A stretch of DNA of 64,000 bases from a virus, in IMG/VR virus record IMGVR_UViG_3300032116_000025. One strand, written 5' to 3'. Position 1 is the stretch's first letter. Every line of letters begins with the position of its first letter. Below, in pieces: positions 9,306 through 58,592 of this stretch. The notes below the pieces were generated by a model. It ran no database searches. It saw nothing but the letters and a program-made list of their open reading frames with translations, and was not told the origin of the DNA. The translations under genes and the position numbers were made by a program.

Positions 9306-10108
9306 AAGACGCAAGCACGGTGGCAGACGTTACGTCACTCAGTAAGGGTGACGTGTTTGACGTAGAGTCCGCCTACGTAGAAATGCTACGCAACAAGCCC
9401 CGCGACAACCGCCAGGGACACTTTCACCCGTCAGCTGTGGGGATGTGCGGGCGAAGAAACGTGTACGAGTACATCCGGGCCCCCGCGATTCAGACGATCG
9501 AGCCCGAAGATTTAGAAGTGTTTGACATGGGCCATGCCGTTCACGGAATGATCCAGGACAAACTGGAGTCTATGGGCGCCTTCTTGCAGACTAAGGGCAT
9601 CCAATACTCCTTTCGCCCCGAGGTACGGTTTGATCCACAAACCGATGTCTTGTACCAAGACCTGCACGTTGGTGGAACAACCGACGGCATCCTAGAGGTG
9701 TGGACGGATACCTGGCGTCAGCGCGGAATCATTGAGATCAAGTCCATCAAGGACGAGAACTTCAAGAAGTTGCGTGGGCCCAAGGAAGACCACGTAATGC
9801 AGGCCCACATCTACGCTAAGCGGTTTGACTGCCCGGTGATGTGGATCTGGTACTTCAACAAGGATACGTCAGAGCGCAAGGTGTACACCGTCCTATTCCA
9901 GAAGGACATCCTACAAAAGGCGGTTGCTAGGTACGCGGGCTGGCTAGAGCACGCCGACAACGGAACTCTGCCAGAGCGAGAAGAAAGCTTCTACATCTGT
10001 CCTCGGTGCGAGTACCGAGAGGTGTGTAAGCCCGCTTCTCTAGCAAAGATCCGGAGCCGACTGTCTGACCCCTCGTCTTCAAACCTTCGCCGGATTGTGG
10101 AGGAGTGA
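9302..10108 (+). CDS. Cas4/RecB-like PD-(D/E)xK exonuclease
   Basis: HPS...C, G..VH, GTTDG, IEIKS, QAHIY, CxxC-x5-C (Fe-S type Cys pattern); not linked to any CRISPR array. Confidence 0.85.
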   Translation: MKDASTVADVTSLSKGDVFDVESAYVEMLRNKPRDNRQGHFHPSAVGMCGRRNVYEYIRAPAIQTIEPEDLEVFDMGHAVHGMIQDKLESMGAFLQTKGIQYSFRPEVRFDPQTDVLYQDLHVGGTTDGILEVWTDTWRQRGIIEIKSIKDENFKKLRGPKEDHVMQAHIYAKRFDCPVMWIWYFNKDTSERKVYTVLFQKDILQKAVARYAGWLEHADNGTLPEREESFYICPRCEYREVCKPASLAKIRSRLSDPSSSNLRRIVEE

Positions 10109-10719
10109 TGGCCCTAGACCTAACAAGAGCCGCTATTCTTCCCAAAGGGTCTGACGAACGCTACCAATCCGCGTTCGAGATCATTGAGCAAGTTCGAGAG
10201 CAAATGCGGGATGAGCTTGGGTTAGAAGAGTACCCAAAACCCGAGTCGCAGCCTCGCCCGCTAGCCGATATTCAAAACATTGAAAGTCTCCCAAACGCGG
10301 AGTTGGGAGGACTGTACGCCCACTACGTGGCCTACGCGCAGTTTGTAGGGGCAAAGCTGGCCGAGACTGAGGCTGCCTACAGGATTGCCACAAACGTTCT
10401 TAAACAGATCGTTGCGGAGATCCAGTCAAAGCTGTTTGCGCAAGAAGTACCAAAATCAGAGATCTCGTCCCGTGTGCGGGAAGACGGCCTCTACAAGAAG
10501 TTCGACACCGAGCTAGTTAAGCTCTACGCCACCAAGACCATCCTTACTGCACACCATAAGGCGTATGACAAACAGGCTGCGGCGCTGTCTCGGATTATTG
10601 CGCTGAGGGAACTAGAGTTCCAGCAGACCTTTCGAGAAGGCGGGATCTCAGGCAACGCAAAGAAAGCTAGGCGTCGTCTGGATATGCCAAGCGACTTTAG
10701 GCGGGGCACGGATGAGTGA
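10108..10719 (+). CDS. Helical coiled-coil protein, possibly a UvsY-like recombination mediator
   Basis: Long amphipathic helices inside the recombination cluster; function inferred from context only. Confidence 0.35.
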   Translation: MALDLTRAAILPKGSDERYQSAFEIIEQVREQMRDELGLEEYPKPESQPRPLADIQNIESLPNAELGGLYAHYVAYAQFVGAKLAETEAAYRIATNVLKQIVAEIQSKLFAQEVPKSEISSRVREDGLYKKFDTELVKLYATKTILTAHHKAYDKQAAALSRIIALRELEFQQTFREGGISGNAKKARRRLDMPSDFRRGTDE

Positions 10720-11179
10720 AGTGGCGTCGTTTAGGGTTGTCCTTCGGGACCCCCCTCCTCCCAGCATTAACCACATGTACTTCAACGGTTCCCATGGGCG
10801 CGTCCTAACAAAAGAGGGACGCGCCTTTAAAGACGCCTTGAAGGACGCGGTTGTACAAGCAATCGCGCACAAACCTTGGAAGGAAGCGGTAGACGAGATC
10901 TACGAGCGGGGCGGCTACGTAGTGATGACTATGCAGATCTACCGCGGAGACATGTACAACAAGTCTTGGAGGCCCGGATCTAAGACTCCCTCAGGAGCAC
11001 TAAGATCCCCCTATCAGAAGTTGGATGCAACCAACTATGCCAAGATCATTGAAGATGCCGTGGTGCTCGGCACCGGCATCGACGACAGCGCTCACCTTGA
11101 AGTTACGGTGGGAAAGTCGCACGACCCGGCAGATCCACGGATCGAGGTTTACTACTACGTTTACCCAAAGCCAGGGTGA
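10712..11179 (+). CDS. rusA: RusA-like Holliday junction resolvase
   Basis: PPSINHMY, DATNYAKIIED, GIDDS, PRIEV. Confidence 0.85.
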   Translation: MSEVASFRVVLRDPPPPSINHMYFNGSHGRVLTKEGRAFKDALKDAVVQAIAHKPWKEAVDEIYERGGYVVMTMQIYRGDMYNKSWRPGSKTPSGALRSPYQKLDATNYAKIIEDAVVLGTGIDDSAHLEVTVGKSHDPADPRIEVYYYVYPKPG

Positions 11180-11406
11180 CAATGTCTAGCGAGCTAATCC
11201 CCTTCAAAGACGACACGGGGGATCCTCGCTTTGCCGCTTGCTACGCACGGGGAAGTGTGTTCCGGCGAGAGGGGCGGTTTCTTCGCGTGGAACGTGGAAT
11301 GAGAACTATCGTTCCACGCGCGCTTTGTATGGACACGCACTTCAAAGAGCGGTGCAAAGTCTGTCCTAGTTACACCCAAACAATCGTGTTTAAGCCGGTG
11401 GGATGA
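11176..11406 (+). CDS. Small Cys-containing hypothetical protein
   Basis: 76 aa, GTGA overlap, C...C...CxxC. Confidence 0.65.
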   Translation: MTMSSELIPFKDDTGDPRFAACYARGSVFRREGRFLRVERGMRTIVPRALCMDTHFKERCKVCPSYTQTIVFKPVG

Positions 11407-11741
11407 TGTCCATCCTAGACAATATGAACATGACGGAGCTAGTAGCACTAGCTCAAGAAACCAACGTAGAGGCTCACCGGGGCCTAAGTCGAGAGGCTCT
11501 TGTAGAGCTACTGACTGACCGGTACACCGGCACCCTTCCAGAGAGACCCGTTAACAAGTACAGGCTCCGGATCATGGAGTTTGTTTTAGACCACTGGGAG
11601 CAGGTAAAGCCGATGCTTACCTGCCCAGCCCGTAGTGGCGATTCAAGAGCCTGCTTCAACTGCACAGACGTGCAAGTTGTTGAGTGCGTTTCAACCAACC
11701 GCGACAACCTGTTCCCCAAATCACACGGAGAAAGCAAATGA
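11403..11741 (+). CDS. Rho-N/HeH-like helical domain plus Cys cluster
   Basis: LDNMNMTELVALAQE...LSREALVELL, followed by C-x8-CxxC-x7-C. Confidence 0.55.
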   Translation: MMSILDNMNMTELVALAQETNVEAHRGLSREALVELLTDRYTGTLPERPVNKYRLRIMEFVLDHWEQVKPMLTCPARSGDSRACFNCTDVQVVECVSTNRDNLFPKSHGESK

Positions 11742-12280
11742 GCCAGACCCTTCCCGATAAGTACCGCGTTCGCACCCGGGCCGAGCTTGAGGAGCTTGCC
11801 GCATCGGCAGAACCGACCAAGCGCGGCGTCCTGGGTGCTCTGCTTCGAGAGCTTGGGTTTGACCCCAACGCGATCCTTGAGCTTAAGAGCAAGGAGCGGG
11901 TAGAGCTGATCCTGAAGACGCAGGAGGAGCGCGGTGGTAGCGCTCCTGCCCCGGTGGCCGCTCCCAAGGATGAAGCGCCGAAGGGTAAGGCTTCTCCGGC
12001 TGCGGCAGCTACTCCCACGAAGGAGAAGGCTTCACCGCCGGCAGCCGCCCCGGTTGACGCTCCTCCTGCCCCCGCTGCTCTGGAGAAGAAGATCTCGGAG
12101 TTGCAGGCGGTTGTTCTGGAGCAGGGCAAGGCACTGGCCAAGATGGCTCAGTACCTTCAGGACGCCCACTACCTCATCCGCTTGGTCGTGGCCAGCAACA
12201 GCGACACCAACGCTAACGCCAAGGACCCCGAGATCCGGGAGATGCTCTACGGCAAGCTGAGCGACTCGGGAAAAGGCTGA
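11738..12280 (+). CDS. Hypothetical protein (HeH-like domain, Pro/Ala/Lys linker, coiled coil); short form of a frameshifted gene
   Basis: RBS GGAG before the ATG at 11738, ATGA overlap; ends ...TCG GGA AAA GGC TGA. Confidence 0.8.
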   Translation: MSQTLPDKYRVRTRAELEELAASAEPTKRGVLGALLRELGFDPNAILELKSKERVELILKTQEERGGSAPAPVAAPKDEAPKGKASPAAAATPTKEKASPPAAAPVDAPPAPAALEKKISELQAVVLEQGKALAKMAQYLQDAHYLIRLVVASNSDTNANAKDPEIREMLYGKLSDSGKG

Positions 12281-12507
12281 CGGAGGACGTCATTCCGGCT
12301 CCTGACCTATCCGGCGTACTAAAGCTGACCCCGGACCAGCTTGTTCGGCTTACCCCGCGCGAGCTAGCAGAGATGAACCGGGACGACGTTCTCCAGTTGT
12401 TACATCAGCTAGGCTACTCGATTGAGGGCATCGAAACTCGGACGGCAGCACTGACTAAGCTGTCCTCAGCGATTACTGACGTAGAGGGAGAAGAACTCCC
12501 CGCATAG
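12268..12507 (+). CDS. -1 frame C-terminal extension reached by programmed ribosomal frameshift
   Basis: Slippery heptamer G GGA AAA (12268-12274); -1 frame open for 79 codons (GKRLTEDVIP...EGEELPA*), ending just before the terminator. Confidence 0.75.
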   Translation, partial: GKRLTEDVIPAPDLSGVLKLTPDQLVRLTPRELAEMNRDDVLQLLHQLGYSIEGIETRTAALTKLSSAITDVEGEELPA

Positions 12508-12510
12508 ACC

Positions 12511-12540
12511 GAAAGGGGGCACACGCCCCCTTTCTTTTTT
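12511..12540 (+). terminator. Intrinsic terminator of the replication operon
   Basis: GAAAGGGGGC-ACAC-GCCCCCTTTC followed by TTTTTT. Confidence 0.9.
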
Positions 12541-12549
12541 GATCTAAGC

Positions 12550-12583
12550 AAAAAAGGAGGCATACGGGTTACGTATGCCTCCT
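12550..12583 (-). terminator. Intrinsic terminator on the minus strand
   Basis: 12 bp stem AGGAGGCATACG/CGTATGCCTCCT; the A-run on + reads as a U-tract on -. Confidence 0.85.
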
Positions 12584-12670
12584 GGGTGTGTGGACTGTTT
12601 CAGGGCCAAACGGGGCTGTCAAGGGATCTCCCCTTGCACCATGGTCCACGTGTTTTTGGGCTATTCGCCT
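12550..12670 (-). ncRNA. Candidate ~120 nt structured small RNA
   Basis: Lies between the leftward promoter half and the minus-strand terminator; no real ORF; stems GTGGAC/GTCCAC and CAAGGG/CCCTTG. Confidence 0.45.
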
Positions 12671-12676
12671 CAATAT

Positions 12677-12732
12677 CTGATAGGCAATTTTGGCCAGTTT
12701 TTAGCTAAAAATAGGCCAAAACCCCCTATAAG
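12677..12732. promoter_or_regulatory. Palindromic back-to-back divergent promoter pair
   Basis: 34 bp palindrome at 12688-12721 (15 of 17 pairs); both strands read GCTAAAAA-N14-CTAT[AC]AGA. Confidence 0.65.
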
Positions 12733-51692: not shown

Positions 51693-51870
51693 AGTCTTTT
51701 ACTTCTCGGGGCACGGGAGTCCAAAGGTCTTCCCGCGTCACCCTGCGATGCAAAGAAGCCGCGATGGCTACGTTGAGCGTGTCTTCCGGGCCAATGGCAT
51801 CCATGGCCTGGACTGTCACGCTTCTTTTGCCTACAGCAAACTTTAACTGAAGAAACGTTCTTTGCGTCAT
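51664..51870 (-). CDS. Small hypothetical protein
   Basis: 68 aa; ATGA overlap with the tape-measure stop. Confidence 0.45.
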   Translation of the reverse strand: MTQRTFLQLKFAVGKRSVTVQAMDAIGPEDTLNVAIAASLHRRVTREDLWTPVPREVKDFMIRTNLTV

Positions 51871-54800
51871 GGCGCTGTCCCCGGCGGTACAGGCGGATCG
51901 CGAGGAGGATCATCCTCTCCGCCAAACCACGAAGTTGCTCTAGCAACCTCGCGACCAACTGTGCGGGCCAACTCGGCGTTCTCCCTCGCGCGCGTAGAAG
52001 AGTCTGCCATTCTGGATTCGATGCCAGCTTGAATCTGCCTAAGCAAGTCATTTCGCTCTGCGTCAAGCGGAGACGAGGCCCTTGCCGCTTGCAGAGAGTC
52101 TTCTGCGGCGCCCTCCCTAACCTTGCTCATGCCTTCGACGTCACCGACACCGCCAACAACCTCGCCCGCAGCGTTACGGCCACCAATCAGGTTGACAATC
52201 TCCTCTTGCGACAAGCCGCGTCCGCCGTCGCGAAGCGATCCAAGAGCAGACTCCAGCCGACCCCGAATGTCGTTCACCGAATCGGCCGACATCGTGCCGT
52301 CGCTCCGGTTTGTCAGCGAGGTCATCATCTGCTCGATGATCTGATTTGCGTTGCCACCGCCCCTCATAAGCATATCCATGGCGCGGGTGCCGCTGACAGA
52401 CGTCTCTTCGCCGTTACGTCCACGGACTGTAAAGTCCATTGAACCGAAGGTGTTGCCGGTGGCTTCTGCAAGAACGGTCTCAATTGCCTGCCGGCGGCCA
52501 CGACGACCGCGACCCGAAAGCGCCCGTTCCCGCTCTCTTCGGTTCTCTGCGGCCATCGATATGCCGCTGATAATTCCGCTACCGGCCTCGTCGTCTCCAA
52601 CCGACGCGCGCATGCTACGCATAACATCGCGGTAGGCGGATTCACCTTCCGACGTAGTTCGATCGGCGTGGGCCAGCTCAAGTATAAGATTGTTTACGGA
52701 CGCGTTACCAGACCGATCGCTTTCTTCCGTCCCTAGGCCAGCTGCGGCTAGCCCGAAAGCTTCGCCTGCGCGACCAGCAAGGCCCCCTATCCGTGCCGAC
52801 AGAGAGCCCTCTGCTCCGCGCATGTTGCGCATCGCACTTTCAATCGCGCGGTAAGTACCTCCTGTTTGAGACTGTTGCCGCCGAATAGCAGCTTCCCGGG
52901 CTCTGCCCTCTGGACCGCGCGCGATATAAATTGCCTCTGAGCCAATCCCTCCCCTAACATTAATGTTTTCTTCCATTTGTGCATACATAGCAAGGGCCGC
53001 TTGTTGCTGCGCAGGATCCTCTAGCCGCATAGCGGCTTCCCTTGCGGCCACAAGTTGCTCACCAAGAGCCTCCCTGTTACCGGTAAGGTTACTCATAGTT
53101 GCAACGCGCGACCTAAAGTCTTCAGAACTAGCAAAGGATTCTAAAGCTTCGCGATTTACACCCCTGAGCCTATGAAGAAGCTCTGTGTCTCCCCGCTCTC
53201 CAGTGGTCATGCGACGCGTTGCAGCTTCGCGAGATCTGCGAAGCGTGCTTGCAAAAACTACGTGATCGCCACGCACGGTATCGCCAAACTCGTGCGCACC
53301 GGTCACCATGTCTCTAGCGCGCTCAACTCTTGATTGAAACTCGCTGCCTAGCCTTCTTCCAAGGTGTCCACCGCTAGCCACAAAGTTCAGCGCGTTTGTG
53401 TAATTAGCCTCTCCCCCAGCAAGACCCTCCATAAACGAGTCCACCATGCCGGGACCGCTAGACCCAGTAACTTCGCTGGTACCAGTGGGCATCGTGTACC
53501 GAGAACCACTCATGAAAGCCAAGGCGGCCCTTCGATCCATTCCAGCAGGGAGGTAGTCAAGCATTCTATTGCTATCCGTACCCCCCGCTAAGCGGGCGCG
53601 CGCAATTGCGTTAACCGTACCTGCACGATCGCTCATCATTCCTTCTAGAGCTGTGCGGGCTTCGTCGTAGACGACGCCTTGACGCGCAAGGCTGCTTAAA
53701 CGTAGTTCCTCGCGAACGCGGGTGTCGTCCATGCCGGCCGTGTACCCGGCGATTCTGCCTCCTCGGCCTCTGACAGTTCTTGGCCCAATGTTTATTCCCT
53801 CGTGAGCCAACACTTCGGCCCCGGTCTCCCGCGTATGGAACCCCATGCCGTGAAGTAAGTTTTCCCCGAGAGACCTACGAGATAGGGATTCTTGAAGAGA
53901 GTACCCGCCCCCAGAAGCAGTGGCGCCAGCAGACCCTGTGCCGCTGGTCATAAACGCGATGTTTCTGATGTCTTCAGCGGTAGCCCGACCAACAGACATC
54001 CGTGCCAACGCCCCGCGATCTGAAGCAGTTAAGCTGTCTGAGGTAATCCCCAAAAACGCGTTACCAGCACGCTCGAACGCGCTAGATAGACGCGTGGCAA
54101 ACCTGCGCCCCATCTCTCGTGCGGCAGTTAATCCCGTAGCGTCCGACAGGCCGTGCTCAATGTTACGCGTGAACGCCTCAAAGCTGCGGTTCTGCTCAAT
54201 GTCGGTCCTCATCGCTACTTCTCGCGCTGATGAGATCCGACCAATGTTTTCCTGCTCAGCGATGACCCCTTGATTCCGCATCAAGCCCATCATCACTCCG
54301 GCCTCAGACCGGCTCATCCGAAAACGCCGCTGCATTACTAGCTGAGCTAGGTCATCCCCAGAGTCTAGGACACGGTCTCCTACTGTAAGCCGCATCATTC
54401 CGATTTGAGCGGCGAGTCCTCCCTCTTCCATGACCGCGCCACGAAGTAACCCTTCGCGGTTTAGCGCACGAGCGCGGCCCATCCGCCCTACGTTTCTGTG
54501 GGCGGCGCGGGAGACTTCGCTAACAGACAGATCTCCCGACCGGAATCGGTCCATCATATCTTCGTCAAGGCCGGTACCGTTTGCGTTAGACAGCGCAAAT
54601 AGGCTGTAACGCCCCATGGCCCGACGACTAAACGCGCCGGATCTGCTGAGAATGTTGGACGTAAAGGCGGACATTGCGTCGGTGCCCGTGAGTCCTCCAG
54701 TAGCTTCTGAGAGCATTTCTTGGTTGATCGCTCCGCTTTGAACGGCAGCACCAAGAGTCTGAGCAACCCGGACAGCGCCCATCGCGCCTTGCCTACCAAC

Positions 54801-55721
54801 TCCTCCGTAGGCTCGGGAGATCTGAGACCCCTGCGCAGCTAGCGCAACCAGCTGGTTACGATCCATGCCAGAAACGGCTTCGGCAGTTCGGATCTCAGCA
54901 GCAAAGTTGACTCGGTCTGCGTTCTGAAAGATGCCTGCCTGCTGAGACGATCGCACAAACTGCAACGCGTCGGTCAACGTGCCGCCCAGCTCGCGCTGCA
55001 CGTTTTTCAGCGTATCAAGCATCCTTCGGAAGTTTTGAGTAAACTGCTGAACGTCACGGACGCCGGTAAACATGCCAGCGTCCGCACCCATAGACACCAG
55101 GTTATTCAGCTCACCCATGTTTGTGACGCCGCGAGATCGCGCAACTTCACTTGACAGCATTCCGCCAATCTGACCCATTTGGGCTTGACCAAAACCTCGG
55201 CCAAACGCCCCGCCTCCTCCGTAAAAGTTGAAGTTGTTACGAAGGACTGAGTTGGTGACGGCTTGGTCGTTGATACCGCCAGTAAAAGCGTTGTAGTACG
55301 CACCAGCTGCTTTGGTTGCTCCGTAGATGCCTAACCCAATGGCGCCGCCCAACGCTGCTCCGCCTAATGCCCCGCCCGCACCAGCGGAAAGGCCGCCCAT
55401 CAAAGCTCCGCTAAGCGGGTCCATAGGAATGCCCGCAAGCATCCCAACGGTGCTGAGGCCAACGCCTCCTACGGCACCGGCCGTCCGACCATAGTTGGCT
55501 AGGCGCATTGCCGTCTGTTCGCCGTACATGCCGTGCTGCCCCGGCCCGGTCGCCATGAAAGACGTTGGCGGCGGAGGAGCCCTATACGGAGACGGCCCCA
55601 TTCCATAGCCGCCGGTCATGGCGCCTGGGCCAAAGCCCGACGCATACCCACCGTATCCCTGGAACATGCCGAGCTGCTGCCCGACCATTCCGGAGATCAT
55701 GCTAGACGTATAGACGGTCAC
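51867..55721 (-). CDS. Tape measure-like protein
   Basis: 1284 aa, Gly/Ala/Met-rich and helical with hydrophobic Gly-rich stretches; upstream of hub/baseplate genes. Confidence 0.7.
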   Translation of the reverse strand: MTVYTSSMISGMVGQQLGMFQGYGGYASGFGPGAMTGGYGMGPSPYRAPPPPTSFMATGPGQHGMYGEQTAMRLANYGRTAGAVGGVGLSTVGMLAGIPMDPLSGALMGGLSAGAGGALGGAALGGAIGLGIYGATKAAGAYYNAFTGGINDQAVTNSVLRNNFNFYGGGGAFGRGFGQAQMGQIGGMLSSEVARSRGVTNMGELNNLVSMGADAGMFTGVRDVQQFTQNFRRMLDTLKNVQRELGGTLTDALQFVRSSQQAGIFQNADRVNFAAEIRTAEAVSGMDRNQLVALAAQGSQISRAYGGVGRQGAMGAVRVAQTLGAAVQSGAINQEMLSEATGGLTGTDAMSAFTSNILSRSGAFSRRAMGRYSLFALSNANGTGLDEDMMDRFRSGDLSVSEVSRAAHRNVGRMGRARALNREGLLRGAVMEEGGLAAQIGMMRLTVGDRVLDSGDDLAQLVMQRRFRMSRSEAGVMMGLMRNQGVIAEQENIGRISSAREVAMRTDIEQNRSFEAFTRNIEHGLSDATGLTAAREMGRRFATRLSSAFERAGNAFLGITSDSLTASDRGALARMSVGRATAEDIRNIAFMTSGTGSAGATASGGGYSLQESLSRRSLGENLLHGMGFHTRETGAEVLAHEGINIGPRTVRGRGGRIAGYTAGMDDTRVREELRLSSLARQGVVYDEARTALEGMMSDRAGTVNAIARARLAGGTDSNRMLDYLPAGMDRRAALAFMSGSRYTMPTGTSEVTGSSGPGMVDSFMEGLAGGEANYTNALNFVASGGHLGRRLGSEFQSRVERARDMVTGAHEFGDTVRGDHVVFASTLRRSREAATRRMTTGERGDTELLHRLRGVNREALESFASSEDFRSRVATMSNLTGNREALGEQLVAAREAAMRLEDPAQQQAALAMYAQMEENINVRGGIGSEAIYIARGPEGRAREAAIRRQQSQTGGTYRAIESAMRNMRGAEGSLSARIGGLAGRAGEAFGLAAAGLGTEESDRSGNASVNNLILELAHADRTTSEGESAYRDVMRSMRASVGDDEAGSGIISGISMAAENRRERERALSGRGRRGRRQAIETVLAEATGNTFGSMDFTVRGRNGEETSVSGTRAMDMLMRGGGNANQIIEQMMTSLTNRSDGTMSADSVNDIRGRLESALGSLRDGGRGLSQEEIVNLIGGRNAAGEVVGGVGDVEGMSKVREGAAEDSLQAARASSPLDAERNDLLRQIQAGIESRMADSSTRARENAELARTVGREVARATSWFGGEDDPPRDPPVPPGTAP

Positions 55722-55777
55722 GGCAGTAAGTGTAGACGAACTGGAGCGGTTCGCCTATTAGACATTGAAGGAGTTTT

Positions 55778-56065
55778 ATGTCCGACACCCAGAACGCCGA
55801 AGAGAAGCCCACCCAGCAGCACCCCACGTTTGTGCCCGTTGCCCTGTTTGACTCGGGAGAGACCCGGTTACTTATGGGAACGTACGACTCAGAGGGAGGC
55901 ACTCAGGCATGCTTCCAGATCATGACACTTCGCCGACCAGACGTTCCTGAAAGTTCTTACACCGTGGCTGAGCTTGCCGCGTTACGAGAGCTAATCAACA
56001 TCGCGCTCCGAGAGGCGGTAGCAATGACCTCCCAGGTGTTTCGCCAAGAGACCAAGGAAGGTTGA
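55778..56065 (+). CDS. Hypothetical protein, divergent from the tape measure gene
   Basis: RBS AAGGAG; own terminator. Confidence 0.75.
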   Translation: MSDTQNAEEKPTQQHPTFVPVALFDSGETRLLMGTYDSEGGTQACFQIMTLRRPDVPESSYTVAELAALRELINIALREAVAMTSQVFRQETKEG

Positions 56066-56073
56066 GTAAAACG

Positions 56074-56106
56074 GAAAAGGGCCCCCGTGGGGGGCCCTTT
56101 TCTTTT
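56074..56106. terminator. Bidirectional intrinsic terminator
   Basis: GAAAAGGGCCCCC-GTG-GGGGGCCCTTTTC-TTTT between convergent genes. Confidence 0.9.
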
Positions 56107-56110
56107 GCCT

Positions 56111-56389
56111 TCAATCTTGTTCGACCTGGATTTCGGTCTGCTCTCTGAGCGCCGACTGGTGCTTGGGTCGCTTGCCTACGTTTTCTACGTAACGCACAAC
56201 GATAGATCGGCAGACTTCGCAGAGGTCTTCAAACTCAACAAGAGTCTCCCCGTCGAGGCGAATCTCAAGCGCGGAAGCCGGTTTCTTTCCCGACTTTGCC
56301 TGCGCAACCGCCTCATCAAGGGTAATCGGCTTCTGCTCTACGCGGGGACATCGGGCGCACTGCTTGTTTAAGCTTAGAGAGAAGCCCAT
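56111..56389 (-). CDS. Small zinc-finger-like protein
   Basis: CARC...DLCEVC. Confidence 0.65.
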   Translation of the reverse strand: MGFSLSLNKQCARCPRVEQKPITLDEAVAQAKSGKKPASALEIRLDGETLVEFEDLCEVCRSIVVRYVENVGKRPKHQSALREQTEIQVEQD

Positions 56390-56390
56390 A

Positions 56391-56606
56391 TCACTCTCCC
56401 CGCGCCGTCGCGCAGTAAAGGATGTACGCCTTTACGACGCCCCTCTCTGCTCCAATAAGAGGCCCGGCTTCCAGCCCTTTAGCCCGCTGCCGGTCGATAA
56501 ACCAACGCTCAAACTGGACAAGCTCGCCATCGAGCATCTCATCTAGCTTGCGTACGTCTAACTCCGACGGGGGCGGGCTGATCTTGATTTCTACCGATAG
56601 CTGCAT
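56391..56606 (-). CDS. Hypothetical protein
   Basis: 71 aa; abuts the downstream gene. Confidence 0.55.
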   Translation of the reverse strand: MQLSVEIKISPPPSELDVRKLDEMLDGELVQFERWFIDRQRAKGLEAGPLIGAERGVVKAYILYCATARGE

Positions 56607-56919
56607 CTTCGTCCTTCCTGTTGGTTTTCTTGCGGATCTTCCCGCCCTCTAGCGCTTCTTCAGCCTCAAGAGACAGGTTCTCCCAGTTTTCTAGCTCGTC
56701 TCGGGCTTCGCTAATCTTGACTTCGATTTCGTTGATCGTGCTCTCTACGTGCACCTCTGGAACCGTTGCGTAGTCAGACCGCGTAAACCGCATCTCAGCG
56801 TCGCCTGAATCAGACGACAAGTAGTTTGTCCGAAGATACAGGATAAGACCTTCTAGCACGGAGATCCTTGAGCGGATCTCCGAGATCTTATCGATTACGG
56901 TTCCAGCCTTTACGCCCAT
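56539..56919 (-). CDS. Coiled-coil hypothetical protein
   Basis: 126 aa, in operon. Confidence 0.65.
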   Translation of the reverse strand: MGVKAGTVIDKISEIRSRISVLEGLILYLRTNYLSSDSGDAEMRFTRSDYATVPEVHVESTINEIEVKISEARDELENWENLSLEAEEALEGGKIRKKTNRKDEDAAIGRNQDQPAPVGVRRTQAR

Positions 56920-56921
56920 GG

Positions 56922-57617
56922 CTACGCCAGAAGGAATGCCCGGAGACGCCCTTCAAGCGTTGCACCGGAAGAGGTGTCTTTGAGGATGTTTGCGAGGGGG
57001 TAGGCGATCCGCATACGGCGGTTCCTGACCTTGTCGTATACCTCACCGCCCCGATCACGCTCCATCTCTTTTTCGTTAGCGCGCCGAATATCACCCTCAA
57101 CGTGCTCTAGGACAATGTCCGCGTTGCAGTCTAGGCGGGTAAACATCTTGTAGACGAGCGTCACCCAGTGCTGAAGCGGGAGCCTTGCCATGACCTGCCC
57201 AACGAGGTCGGTTGGGTTGTGTACCGACTTGCACTTCGGGCACACGGCAACCCGCTTAGAGACAAACTGAATGTGAAGCGGCTCACCACACGTAACGGTT
57301 GACCCGTCCTTGCCGTCTTCCTTGCTGGGGCAAAGGTAAACAACCTCGTCGCCCCCGCCGTGCAAGAACCCTCCGTTAGTCCACACGCTGACCATTCCGA
57401 AGAATGGTCGGTGAAGAGAGCGATCTTGCGAGAAGCAAACTTCCAGCTTGAACCGGGCCTGCGCCTCGTCCAGATCTGTCAAAAACATCTTTGACAGCTT
57501 CTCTTCAACCTCCTCGTCAAGAACGGCATCGCGGGCAAGCTCCGCCATGTCGTAAAGGCCCCCGGACAGCGCACTGCTGCCGTCGGCGCTTACCATGCCC
57601 TGAGCGCCACGAGTCAC
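56922..57617 (-). CDS. Zinc-ribbon-containing hypothetical protein
   Basis: YLCP...TCG...CPKC. Confidence 0.7.
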   Translation of the reverse strand: MTRGAQGMVSADGSSALSGGLYDMAELARDAVLDEEVEEKLSKMFLTDLDEAQARFKLEVCFSQDRSLHRPFFGMVSVWTNGGFLHGGGDEVVYLCPSKEDGKDGSTVTCGEPLHIQFVSKRVAVCPKCKSVHNPTDLVGQVMARLPLQHWVTLVYKMFTRLDCNADIVLEHVEGDIRRANEKEMERDRGGEVYDKVRNRRMRIAYPLANILKDTSSGATLEGRLRAFLLA

Positions 57618-58045
57618 GTGCCCACCTTAAAGTGCTGTGCAACCAAGCCGGAGGCCGCGCCGATTGAGTGTGCGCCCTTGGTGCTTCCGGGCGCTGTATC
57701 TACCCTGCCAACGAGCGGTTGGCTGGTGACCTCAACGCCTTGACTAAGCACCCGGATTACCGTTTGGCCAAGTACTTCTGCTGCGTCCTTAGGCGCGCCC
57801 TTCATAACGACTCGCCAGAGGTACCGGACGCTCTTGGATGTCGTGTCTAGGAAGTAAACGCGGCTAATGTCTACAGACCACTTCTTGTCTGCAAGCGAGT
57901 CCTGCGTAATCAAATATTCCCGAACGACCTCGGCCCAAACCGCCGGGTCCTTTACTCGGAGCATGAGGGTTGCTGATCCCGCAGAGTCTTGCTTCTGGGT
58001 GACGATCTCAGTGCTGCAACGGCCAAGCGCTTGATCTAAACGCAT
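57614..58045 (-). CDS. Hypothetical protein
   Basis: 143 aa, coupled. Confidence 0.7.
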   Translation of the reverse strand: MRLDQALGRCSTEIVTQKQDSAGSATLMLRVKDPAVWAEVVREYLITQDSLADKKWSVDISRVYFLDTTSKSVRYLWRVVMKGAPKDAAEVLGQTVIRVLSQGVEVTSQPLVGRVDTAPGSTKGAHSIGAASGLVAQHFKVGT

Positions 58046-58046
58046 C

Positions 58047-58592
58047 TCAAGCTCCCATGTCGATGATGATTGCGTGTGTCACGTCGGCTAAGAGGTTGGT
58101 TGGCCCGCCCATAACGACGAGTTTGTCCTCAAACGCCGGGGTATCGGAGTAAATAGCGGGCATCCCAAAAACGCTTTGGGGCCTTGGATCCTCAAGCGCC
58201 AAGAACGCGCTAAGATCCTCGGCTTTTTGCGCTGCCAGAAACGTGGGCTTTACGCGGTACGCCGAGAGTGTTCGAGTTGCTAGCTCTAACGATAGGTACG
58301 GGTGCCGTTCAGGGTCAAAAGGCAGCGATGACAGGTTCCCAGACGCCTCTACCCGCTCCAGCACAAAGGCTGCGTCTACGTGTTGAGCAACCTCAACGCT
58401 TGGAATGACCTGTTCGCCGTCGGCTACGAGCCTTTGGACGTTAAACTCAGTCGGAGTGATGCGGATCTCAAGGGTGTCCGGCAGCTCCACCACGCGCTTA
58501 AACAGCGCCACGATCTCCTCGACCGTGCGAGGAAGGGGCTGGCTGTGCGTACGCAGCCTACGGCCTTCATCCTGGGTTGCTGCTGATTCCAT
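58047..58592 (-). CDS. Hypothetical protein
   Basis: 181 aa, coupled. Confidence 0.7.
   Translation of the reverse strand: MESAATQDEGRRLRTHSQPLPRTVEEIVALFKRVVELPDTLEIRITPTEFNVQRLVADGEQVIPSVEVAQHVDAAFVLERVEASGNLSSLPFDPERHPYLSLELATRTLSAYRVKPTFLAAQKAEDLSAFLALEDPRPQSVFGMPAIYSDTPAFEDKLVVMGGPTNLLADVTHAIIIDMGA

Follow-up and report, generated by a model that had tools for sequence, protein, structure and literature searches.

With few exceptions, the programmed -1 frameshifts documented in phages affect tail chaperones or virion proteins (PMC5009743, PMC10885494), and the cro gene of phage A2 is a non-structural case of doubtful relevance (PMC5009743). In the tail genes of lambda (gpG/gpGT) and of the halovirus HCTV-1 (g-t), a G GGA AA heptamer near the end of the first ORF gives rise to a short and a C-terminally extended product, with no strong conserved stimulator, and the lambda G/GT ratio is about 30:1 (PMC5009743). 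The heptamer G_GGA_AAG is shift-prone in E. coli, where heptamers ending in AAC or AAA shift less than those ending in AAG, and G_GGA_AAC is the g-t site of HCTV-1 (PMC5009743). A -1 shift near the 3′ end likewise adds a small domain to 10A/10B of T7 and T3 and to capsid and tail proteins of Lactobacillus phage A2 and of a Listeria phage, and in T7 a terminator lies just over 200 nt downstream (PMC5009743). Outside phages, recoding sets the ratio of two isoforms of a DNA replication-linked protein in E. coli dnaX (tau/gamma), where A AAA AAG is accompanied by a 5′ Shine-Dalgarno (SD) sequence and a 3′ hairpin and the shift truncates the product.

Here we analysed a stretch of 64,000 nt (the window), corresponding to bases 21491-85490 within one contig of 160,725 bp. 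The same contig encodes a tail sheath, a major head protein and a large terminase, and on the basis of these genes it is a myovirus-like phage; the phage occurs in freshwater and related metagenomes. On the plus strand, a replication/recombination operon encodes a DnaB-like helicase, a PolA-like protein (an assignment read from sequence), a RecA-like protein, a Holliday junction resolvase, a Cas4-like exonuclease, RusA and two small genes, followed by a gene of 180 codons that we term ORF0 (11738..12280, plus strand) and a terminator. ORF0 is the last full gene of this operon, a place that it keeps in every locus with context, and RusA and the Cas4-like exonuclease precede it in all lineages for which context is available.

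Like the lambda and HCTV-1 genes, ORF0 carries a G GGA AA heptamer close to its end, predicts a short and an extended product and has no strong conserved stimulator. In contrast to those genes, which precede the tape measure gene, ORF0 ends a replication/recombination operon and the folds are unrelated; moreover the last base of the heptamer is C or A, never G, in 13 loci, whereas lambda has G_GGA_AAG. As in the T7 group the shift would append a small domain near the 3′ end, and as in T7 itself a terminator follows, but those cases concern major virion proteins that often gain Ig-like domains, while the protein here belongs to a replication operon and the domain is a predicted HEH fold (helix, extended loop, helix). 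The likeness to dnaX lies in a two-isoform protein linked to replication; here, however, the shift would extend the product, and no conserved 5′ SD accompanies it. Neither the gene family nor its functional context was previously known for frameshifting, while the mechanism is classical. A deeply conserved frameshift in a non-structural operon is unlike nearly all documented phage cases, and no report of the ORF0 family was found in literature searches weighted to openly accessible papers. No cultured phage encoding the family was found, and scans of genome collections were likewise without a match.

The 3′ end of ORF0 reads TCG GGA AAA GGC TGA. This places the heptamer G GGA AAA (12268..12274, plus strand), with G as the next base, in the phase X XXY YYZ and one codon ahead of the frame-0 stop TGA (12278..12280, plus strand). 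The -1 ORF (12268..12507, plus strand) comprises 79 open codons from 12268 to the TAG at 12505-12507; the frame is open for just 20 codons 5′ of that, and no canonical start occurs in it before the ATG at 12373. It ends just before the intrinsic terminator of the operon (12511..12541, plus strand), whose stem begins at 12511; homologs have a counterpart, a hairpin with a T-run, after their -1 ORF. A shift at the heptamer is predicted to append 77 residues (12274-12504) to 179 encoded by ORF0, yielding 256 aa. The first-pass annotation had read the in-frame heptamer, the 79-codon -1 frame lacking a suitable upstream start, the isoforms of about 180 and 256 aa and their junction peptide correctly from the sequence. 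It had also asked for reads to be inspected for an indel: contigs from two further runs, X8 and X13, neither of them marked as the source, span the junction with zero substitutions or indels, and this exact match rules out an assembly error as the source of the -1 frame.

In this genome the frequency of in-phase heptamers is about 0.001 per codon, and 3 of 147 genes contain such a heptamer within their last six codons; one occurrence alone therefore means little, and conservation is the test. GGA makes up 20% of glycine codons and AAA 20% of lysine codons. An in-phase G GGA AAC or G GGA AAA together with a homologous -1 ORF was found at 13 of 14 distinct loci, representing seven deep lineages with identities down to about 30% or less. 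Among these 13 (the window and 12 others), ten have G GGA AAC and three G GGA AAA, and the next base is nearly always G. The close homologs consist of four proteins with 59-70% identity and two loci reached through the -1 ORF; all six read GAG GGA AAC G(G/A)C TGA, have a terminator after the -1 ORF and keep that ORF open and 72-84% identical to the one in the window. The heptamer is also present in the DNA of distant loci, namely L012 (45% identity), L013, L014, L021 (about 30%) and L023. A profile built from five close -1 ORFs matched the -1 frame of six distant loci with E values from 2e-29 to 3e-7, whereas the same profile gave E 1.5 or worse against their frames 0 and +1. These statistics take related sequences as independent, so that nominal p-values are too favourable, and the effective number at the DNA level is about seven, that of the deep lineages. 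Distant homologs thus retain the heptamer and the -1 ORF, a check that the first-pass annotation had called for, and a chance heptamer is rejected. One further candidate homolog, L009, proved to be a false positive, a VirB5-like gene. A search for homologs in which ORF0 and the -1 ORF are fused in frame found none among 8000 longer candidates, which is weak evidence either way.

The motif also left a trace in the protein. Among 70 ORF0 representatives from a profile search, each less than 50% identical to the others, 59 end with G-N (57) or G-K (2) within the last eight residues, against a background of 6% for an eight-residue window. The residue before this pair was in 0 of 59 cases D, N, H, F, Y, C or I, although these make up 25% of the residues in the tails; none of the seven has a codon ending in G, and so none can supply the first G of the heptamer. 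Wherever a residue follows the pair, it is G, D, E, A or V, all of them encoded by codons with G as the first base. The distance between the motif and the conserved core of ORF0 varies. In a tree built without the last eight residues, the motif occurs to either side of the midpoint root, and at least five changes are needed to account for the 11 representatives that lack it. As read from these sequences, the terminal G-N/G-K pattern is the protein shadow of G GGA AAN G, and a conserved terminal Gly-Asn in a protein family can expose hidden recoding from protein data alone.

L030 serves as an independent check: it was located through the Cys-rich gene upstream of ORF0 rather than through ORF0, and its syntenic ORF0 counterpart is barely recognisable (7 bits). 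This gene nevertheless has G GGA AAA in phase; 10 nt past the heptamer stands a hairpin of 10 bp (fold -23.9 kcal/mol), and a weakly homologous -1 ORF of 65 codons (12.8 bits) runs to a terminator. The frame-0 stop lies about 55 codons beyond the heptamer. L019 is the only one of the 11 representatives without terminal G-N/G-K (11 of 70) to have been read as DNA. At this locus (L019, 3000-3261) there is no heptamer, and a homologous -1 ORF of 77 open codons is retained; GAGGAGG stands just ahead of the TAG (GAGGAGG-AC-UAG), and a small GGGG-CTT-CCCC hairpin stands just after it. L019 is placed in a supported clade whose four proteins (P0030, P0031, P0033 and P0070) all lack the motif. Since it keeps the -1 ORF without the heptamer, at least one lineage would express the added domain another way: L019 may use a GTG at +50 or another kind of recoding, and could represent a novel way of changing frame at a stop codon. 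Five further homologs (P0060, P0068, P0073, P0076 and P0080) end in x-G-E-x-stop instead of x-G-N-x-stop, and in both groups checked the G-E aligned with the G-N position. These tails, seen in protein sequence alone, possibly reflect a G GGG GAA slippery motif. GGGGGAA is a common motif of actinophage chaperones (PMC10885494).

Codon differences among the close homologs bear on whether the -1 frame is translated from the heptamer or from a start of its own. In the stretch that runs from the linker to the first ATG, the -1 frame showed 170 synonymous against 93 non-synonymous pairwise differences, compared with 15 against 229 and 18 against 224 in the other two frames of the same stretch; after the first ATG the -1 frame showed 224 against 103. 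The 22 codons of the window upstream of the ATG differ from each relative by 9-11 synonymous and 3-7 non-synonymous changes. Beside the site, frame 0 changes from Asn to Lys and from Gly to Asp, and in each case the Arg encoded in the -1 frame is left unaltered. Selection upstream of the first ATG makes a 44-aa reading too short, and the possibility raised in the first-pass annotation, that only the 44-aa ORF from the internal ATG is expressed, was not upheld. That ORF from ATG 12373, or the ORFs of 39-67 aa called in homologs, would correspond to the starts that automatic gene calls choose, and an ATG near +95 is common to most loci; Met 12373, however, falls within the HEH motif and would cut away its first short helix, the 22 codons ahead of it are under the same purifying selection, no good SD precedes it and the heptamer would be left unexplained, which together make this reading highly improbable. 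Access to the -1 frame by transcriptional slippage is equally remote. RNA polymerase typically slips on long homopolymers. The GGGAAAA of the window is a short G/A run, but most homologs have only three A (GGGAAAC), and the motif always occupies one codon phase, which slippage of the polymerase would not require. The strongest rival to the frameshift, given the ATGA and GTGA overlaps of the operon and the CTGA of the window, is independent initiation, by which the -1 ORF would be a separate small gene with a coupled start at CTG (CTGA), or at a non-canonical ATT behind the GGAGG that follows the stop, and the heptamer a by-product of SD-like GAGG/GGGA; both starts go beyond the first-pass annotation. 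Five upstream junctions of the operon are indeed ATGA or GTGA overlaps, CTGA is present in ten loci, GAGG precedes the CTG by 7 nt in close homologs, GGAGG lies past the stop in the close clade, and L019 retains the -1 ORF without the heptamer. Yet no start codon for the -1 ORF is conserved across the loci: gene callers place canonical starts at scattered positions from +20 to +95 and beyond, the CTG is replaced by GTA in L012 and by CTA in L014, and in no locus has it become ATG or GTG, although a true start should drift there. The window lacks the GAGG and still retains the heptamer; no start codon keeps a constant spacing from GGAGG, which is missing from distant loci; and with the stop of L030 so far from its site, stop-start coupling cannot apply at that locus. 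In L013 a -1 stop stands directly ahead of the heptamer. An SD would also leave the fixed codon phase and the conserved AAC/AAA unexplained, and we regard independent initiation as very unlikely.

The remaining alternative accepts the frameshift and disputes its setting, making ORF0 a displaced tail assembly chaperone (G/GT) with an ordinary lambda-type shift. In such chaperones G binds the tape measure protein and T the tail tube protein. The phage is a myovirus with a tail sheath, a scan beside its tail genes found no G/GT-like heptamer pair, and the -1 ORF has a sub-threshold match to Pfam Phage_TAC_6 (E 0.0009, 20.1 bits against a cut-off of 23.4). The candidate tape measure region (51867-58592), a 1284-aa ORF with small ORFs upstream, gave no PHROG matches and contains no terminal XXXYYYZ heptamer, so that no classical G/GT site is present there. 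The TAC_6 match, however, is 23 residues long and recurs in only 3 of 13 family members, and there was no match in PHROG. ORF0 lacks the position of a chaperone gene, flanked by the major tail gene and the tape measure gene: about 40 kb separate it from the candidate tape measure gene, and the sheath gene (G000:131830-135021) is 98 kb away. Both of its small domains are modelled as HEH folds and it is fused to the upstream Cys-rich gene in several relatives, leaving a chaperone very unlikely. Comparison of the homologs establishes, at the level of sequence, the heptamer site, its phase, its conservation and the coding selection on the -1 frame. With the indel excluded, these results support what the first-pass annotation had put forward, a programmed -1 frameshift outside the tail genes, in the replication operon. 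The heptamer is very probably a real, deeply conserved programmed -1 frameshift signal, with the shift taking place in cells.

A stimulator (3′ structure or 5′ SD) is not required in all bacterial -1 frameshifts, and no stimulator conserved across the family was found. The first-pass annotation had suggested a pseudoknot built from a TGACG/CGTCA stem with AGGA able to pair with TCCT. Its elements are present in the window (12278-12303), beginning 3 nt after the heptamer, whereas the usual spacer to a 3′ structure is 5-9 nt. It was rejected as a conserved stimulator: 64% of cells were paired across five close sequences, a value equalled by 198 of 500 shuffles. A 10-bp RNA hairpin with two covarying pairs is found in the close clade (12309..12336, plus strand), 34 nt past the heptamer and weakest in this genome; 91% of its cells are paired and 3 of 500 shuffles equal it, in a test that is inflated by having derived the structure from the same sequences. 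Only weak folding, no better than in shuffles, was detected after the heptamer in the window. L013 (13 bp, z -5.0), L021 and L030 have strong hairpins 10-16 nt downstream of the heptamer, and L005 and L006 have a shorter one 7 nt past it. On the 5′ side, an SD at a spacing of 9-14 nt stimulates bacterial -1 shifts (PMC5009743), and none is conserved at this spacing across the family loci.

In the predicted structure of ORF0 (mean pLDDT 84), a small helical domain is joined by a disordered linker to a helix of 42 residues with heptads. The N-terminal HEH domain (residues 12-68; 11771..11941, plus strand) has an AlphaFold pLDDT above 90 over most of its length and is Rho-like: its best VIA match is Rho 1a62 (Z 7.2, rmsd 1.1 over 48 residues), well above the coiled-coil matches and followed by YqbF, LEM and T4 endonuclease VII. 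The linker, rich in Ala, Pro and Lys and of variable length in the alignment, occupies 11942..12070 (plus strand). The long amphipathic heptad helix (residues 112-153; 12071..12196, plus strand) probably forms a coiled coil, to judge from the coiled-coil matches in the fold search; a homodimer prediction for residues 108-178 scored 0.11 and was counted neither for nor against. In the long isoform, a C-terminal module predicted to resemble SAP, Rho-N and LEM domains occupies 12355..12483 (plus strand). Its model has a pLDDT of 75, and VIA listed YqbF, SAP, MANF-SAP, Rho and LEM at Z 3-4.6; these scores are low, with many HEH entries among the top matches. Within the models, both domains adopt the HEH fold of about 40 residues.

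The predicted fold is shared with known HEH domains (Rho 1a62, SAP, LEM, B. subtilis YqbF 2hjq and the C-terminal domain of T4 endonuclease VII), but membership in those families is not evident at the sequence level. Neither domain matched Pfam at the gathering score, Rho_N coming closest with an E of 0.011 in 2 of 13 members. The added domain differs from the known families further in being mostly acidic: its copy in the window has 8 K/R against 14 D/E, and 11 of 13 members have a net acidic one, while the charge of the N-terminal domain is about neutral. The earlier proposal that the shift adds a second copy of a DNA-binding module therefore holds at the level of the fold, both domains being HEH in the models, and fails at that of sequence, where similarity between them is negligible (hhalign probability 6%) and the added copy is acidic. 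A net acidic domain would suit protein docking better than DNA binding.

These observations suggest a model in which tandem tRNA slippage would take place on G GGA AAA (G GGA AAC in most relatives) into the -1 frame. Most ribosomes would halt at the TGA at 12278 and release the 180-aa protein, with its HEH domain, flexible linker and coiled-coil helix; a minority would slip back by one base and append the 77 residues carrying the second, acidic HEH module. The shift is probably one of low efficiency, at a few percent, as in lambda G/GT, because this genome offers neither a conserved 5′ SD nor a properly spaced strong 3′ structure. For both isoforms, function is read from fold similarity at modest Z. 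Tentatively, its purpose might be to fix the ratio of short to long forms in an oligomeric nucleoprotein or adaptor of replication or recombination, in which the rare long form would add a docking module. The G-E tails and the heptamer-less L019 make the slip signal appear exchangeable, and one may speculate, with greater reserve, that the conserved frameshift of the family meters a coiled-coil replication or nucleoid adaptor with few acidic-HEH subunits, in a dnaX-like manner, and that the signal itself can be exchanged. Independently of function, databases annotate the locus wrongly, as a 180-aa gene and a truncated ORF of 39-67 aa. The loci also form a natural variant series (AAC, AAA, probable GAA or none; with or without a hairpin; nearly always with G next) for the requirements of bacterial G GGA AAN shifts.

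The gene upstream of ORF0 encodes 112 aa (11403..11741, plus strand), overlaps ORF0 at an ATGA and has a weak Rho_N-like match at its start; its four invariant Cys likely form a Zn site. In at least six relatives (e.g. L023:2501-3394) it is joined in frame to ORF0, which suggests that both proteins act together, and a frameshift in those relatives would yield a protein with three HEH-like modules.

Heptamers were noted elsewhere as well. An in-phase C CCA AAG stands four codons ahead of the RusA stop (window 11164-11170), with the next gene in the -1 frame; as a second shift site it was rejected, being unique to this genome, absent in nine homolog loci and probably due to chance. At L027:9331-9337 (G000:10330-10336) a DUF2201 gene carries an in-phase G GGA AAG ten codons ahead of its stop; for the -1 ORF of 453 codons beyond it an ordinary start is likelier, since the downstream gene has GGAGG and overlaps at a GTGA. 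Between the Cas4-like exonuclease and RusA, a helical protein of 204 aa (10105-10719) without a Pfam or PHROG match may resemble the UvsY-type recombination mediators. At the end of the operon, contigs of the RNA run X13 cover 12001-12480 and none passes the terminator; contigs from a single run are no proof of transcription or of where it stops. Facing the operon terminator, and separated by no ORF from an AT-rich stretch at about 12660-12730, lies a second strong terminator on the minus strand (12555-12583).
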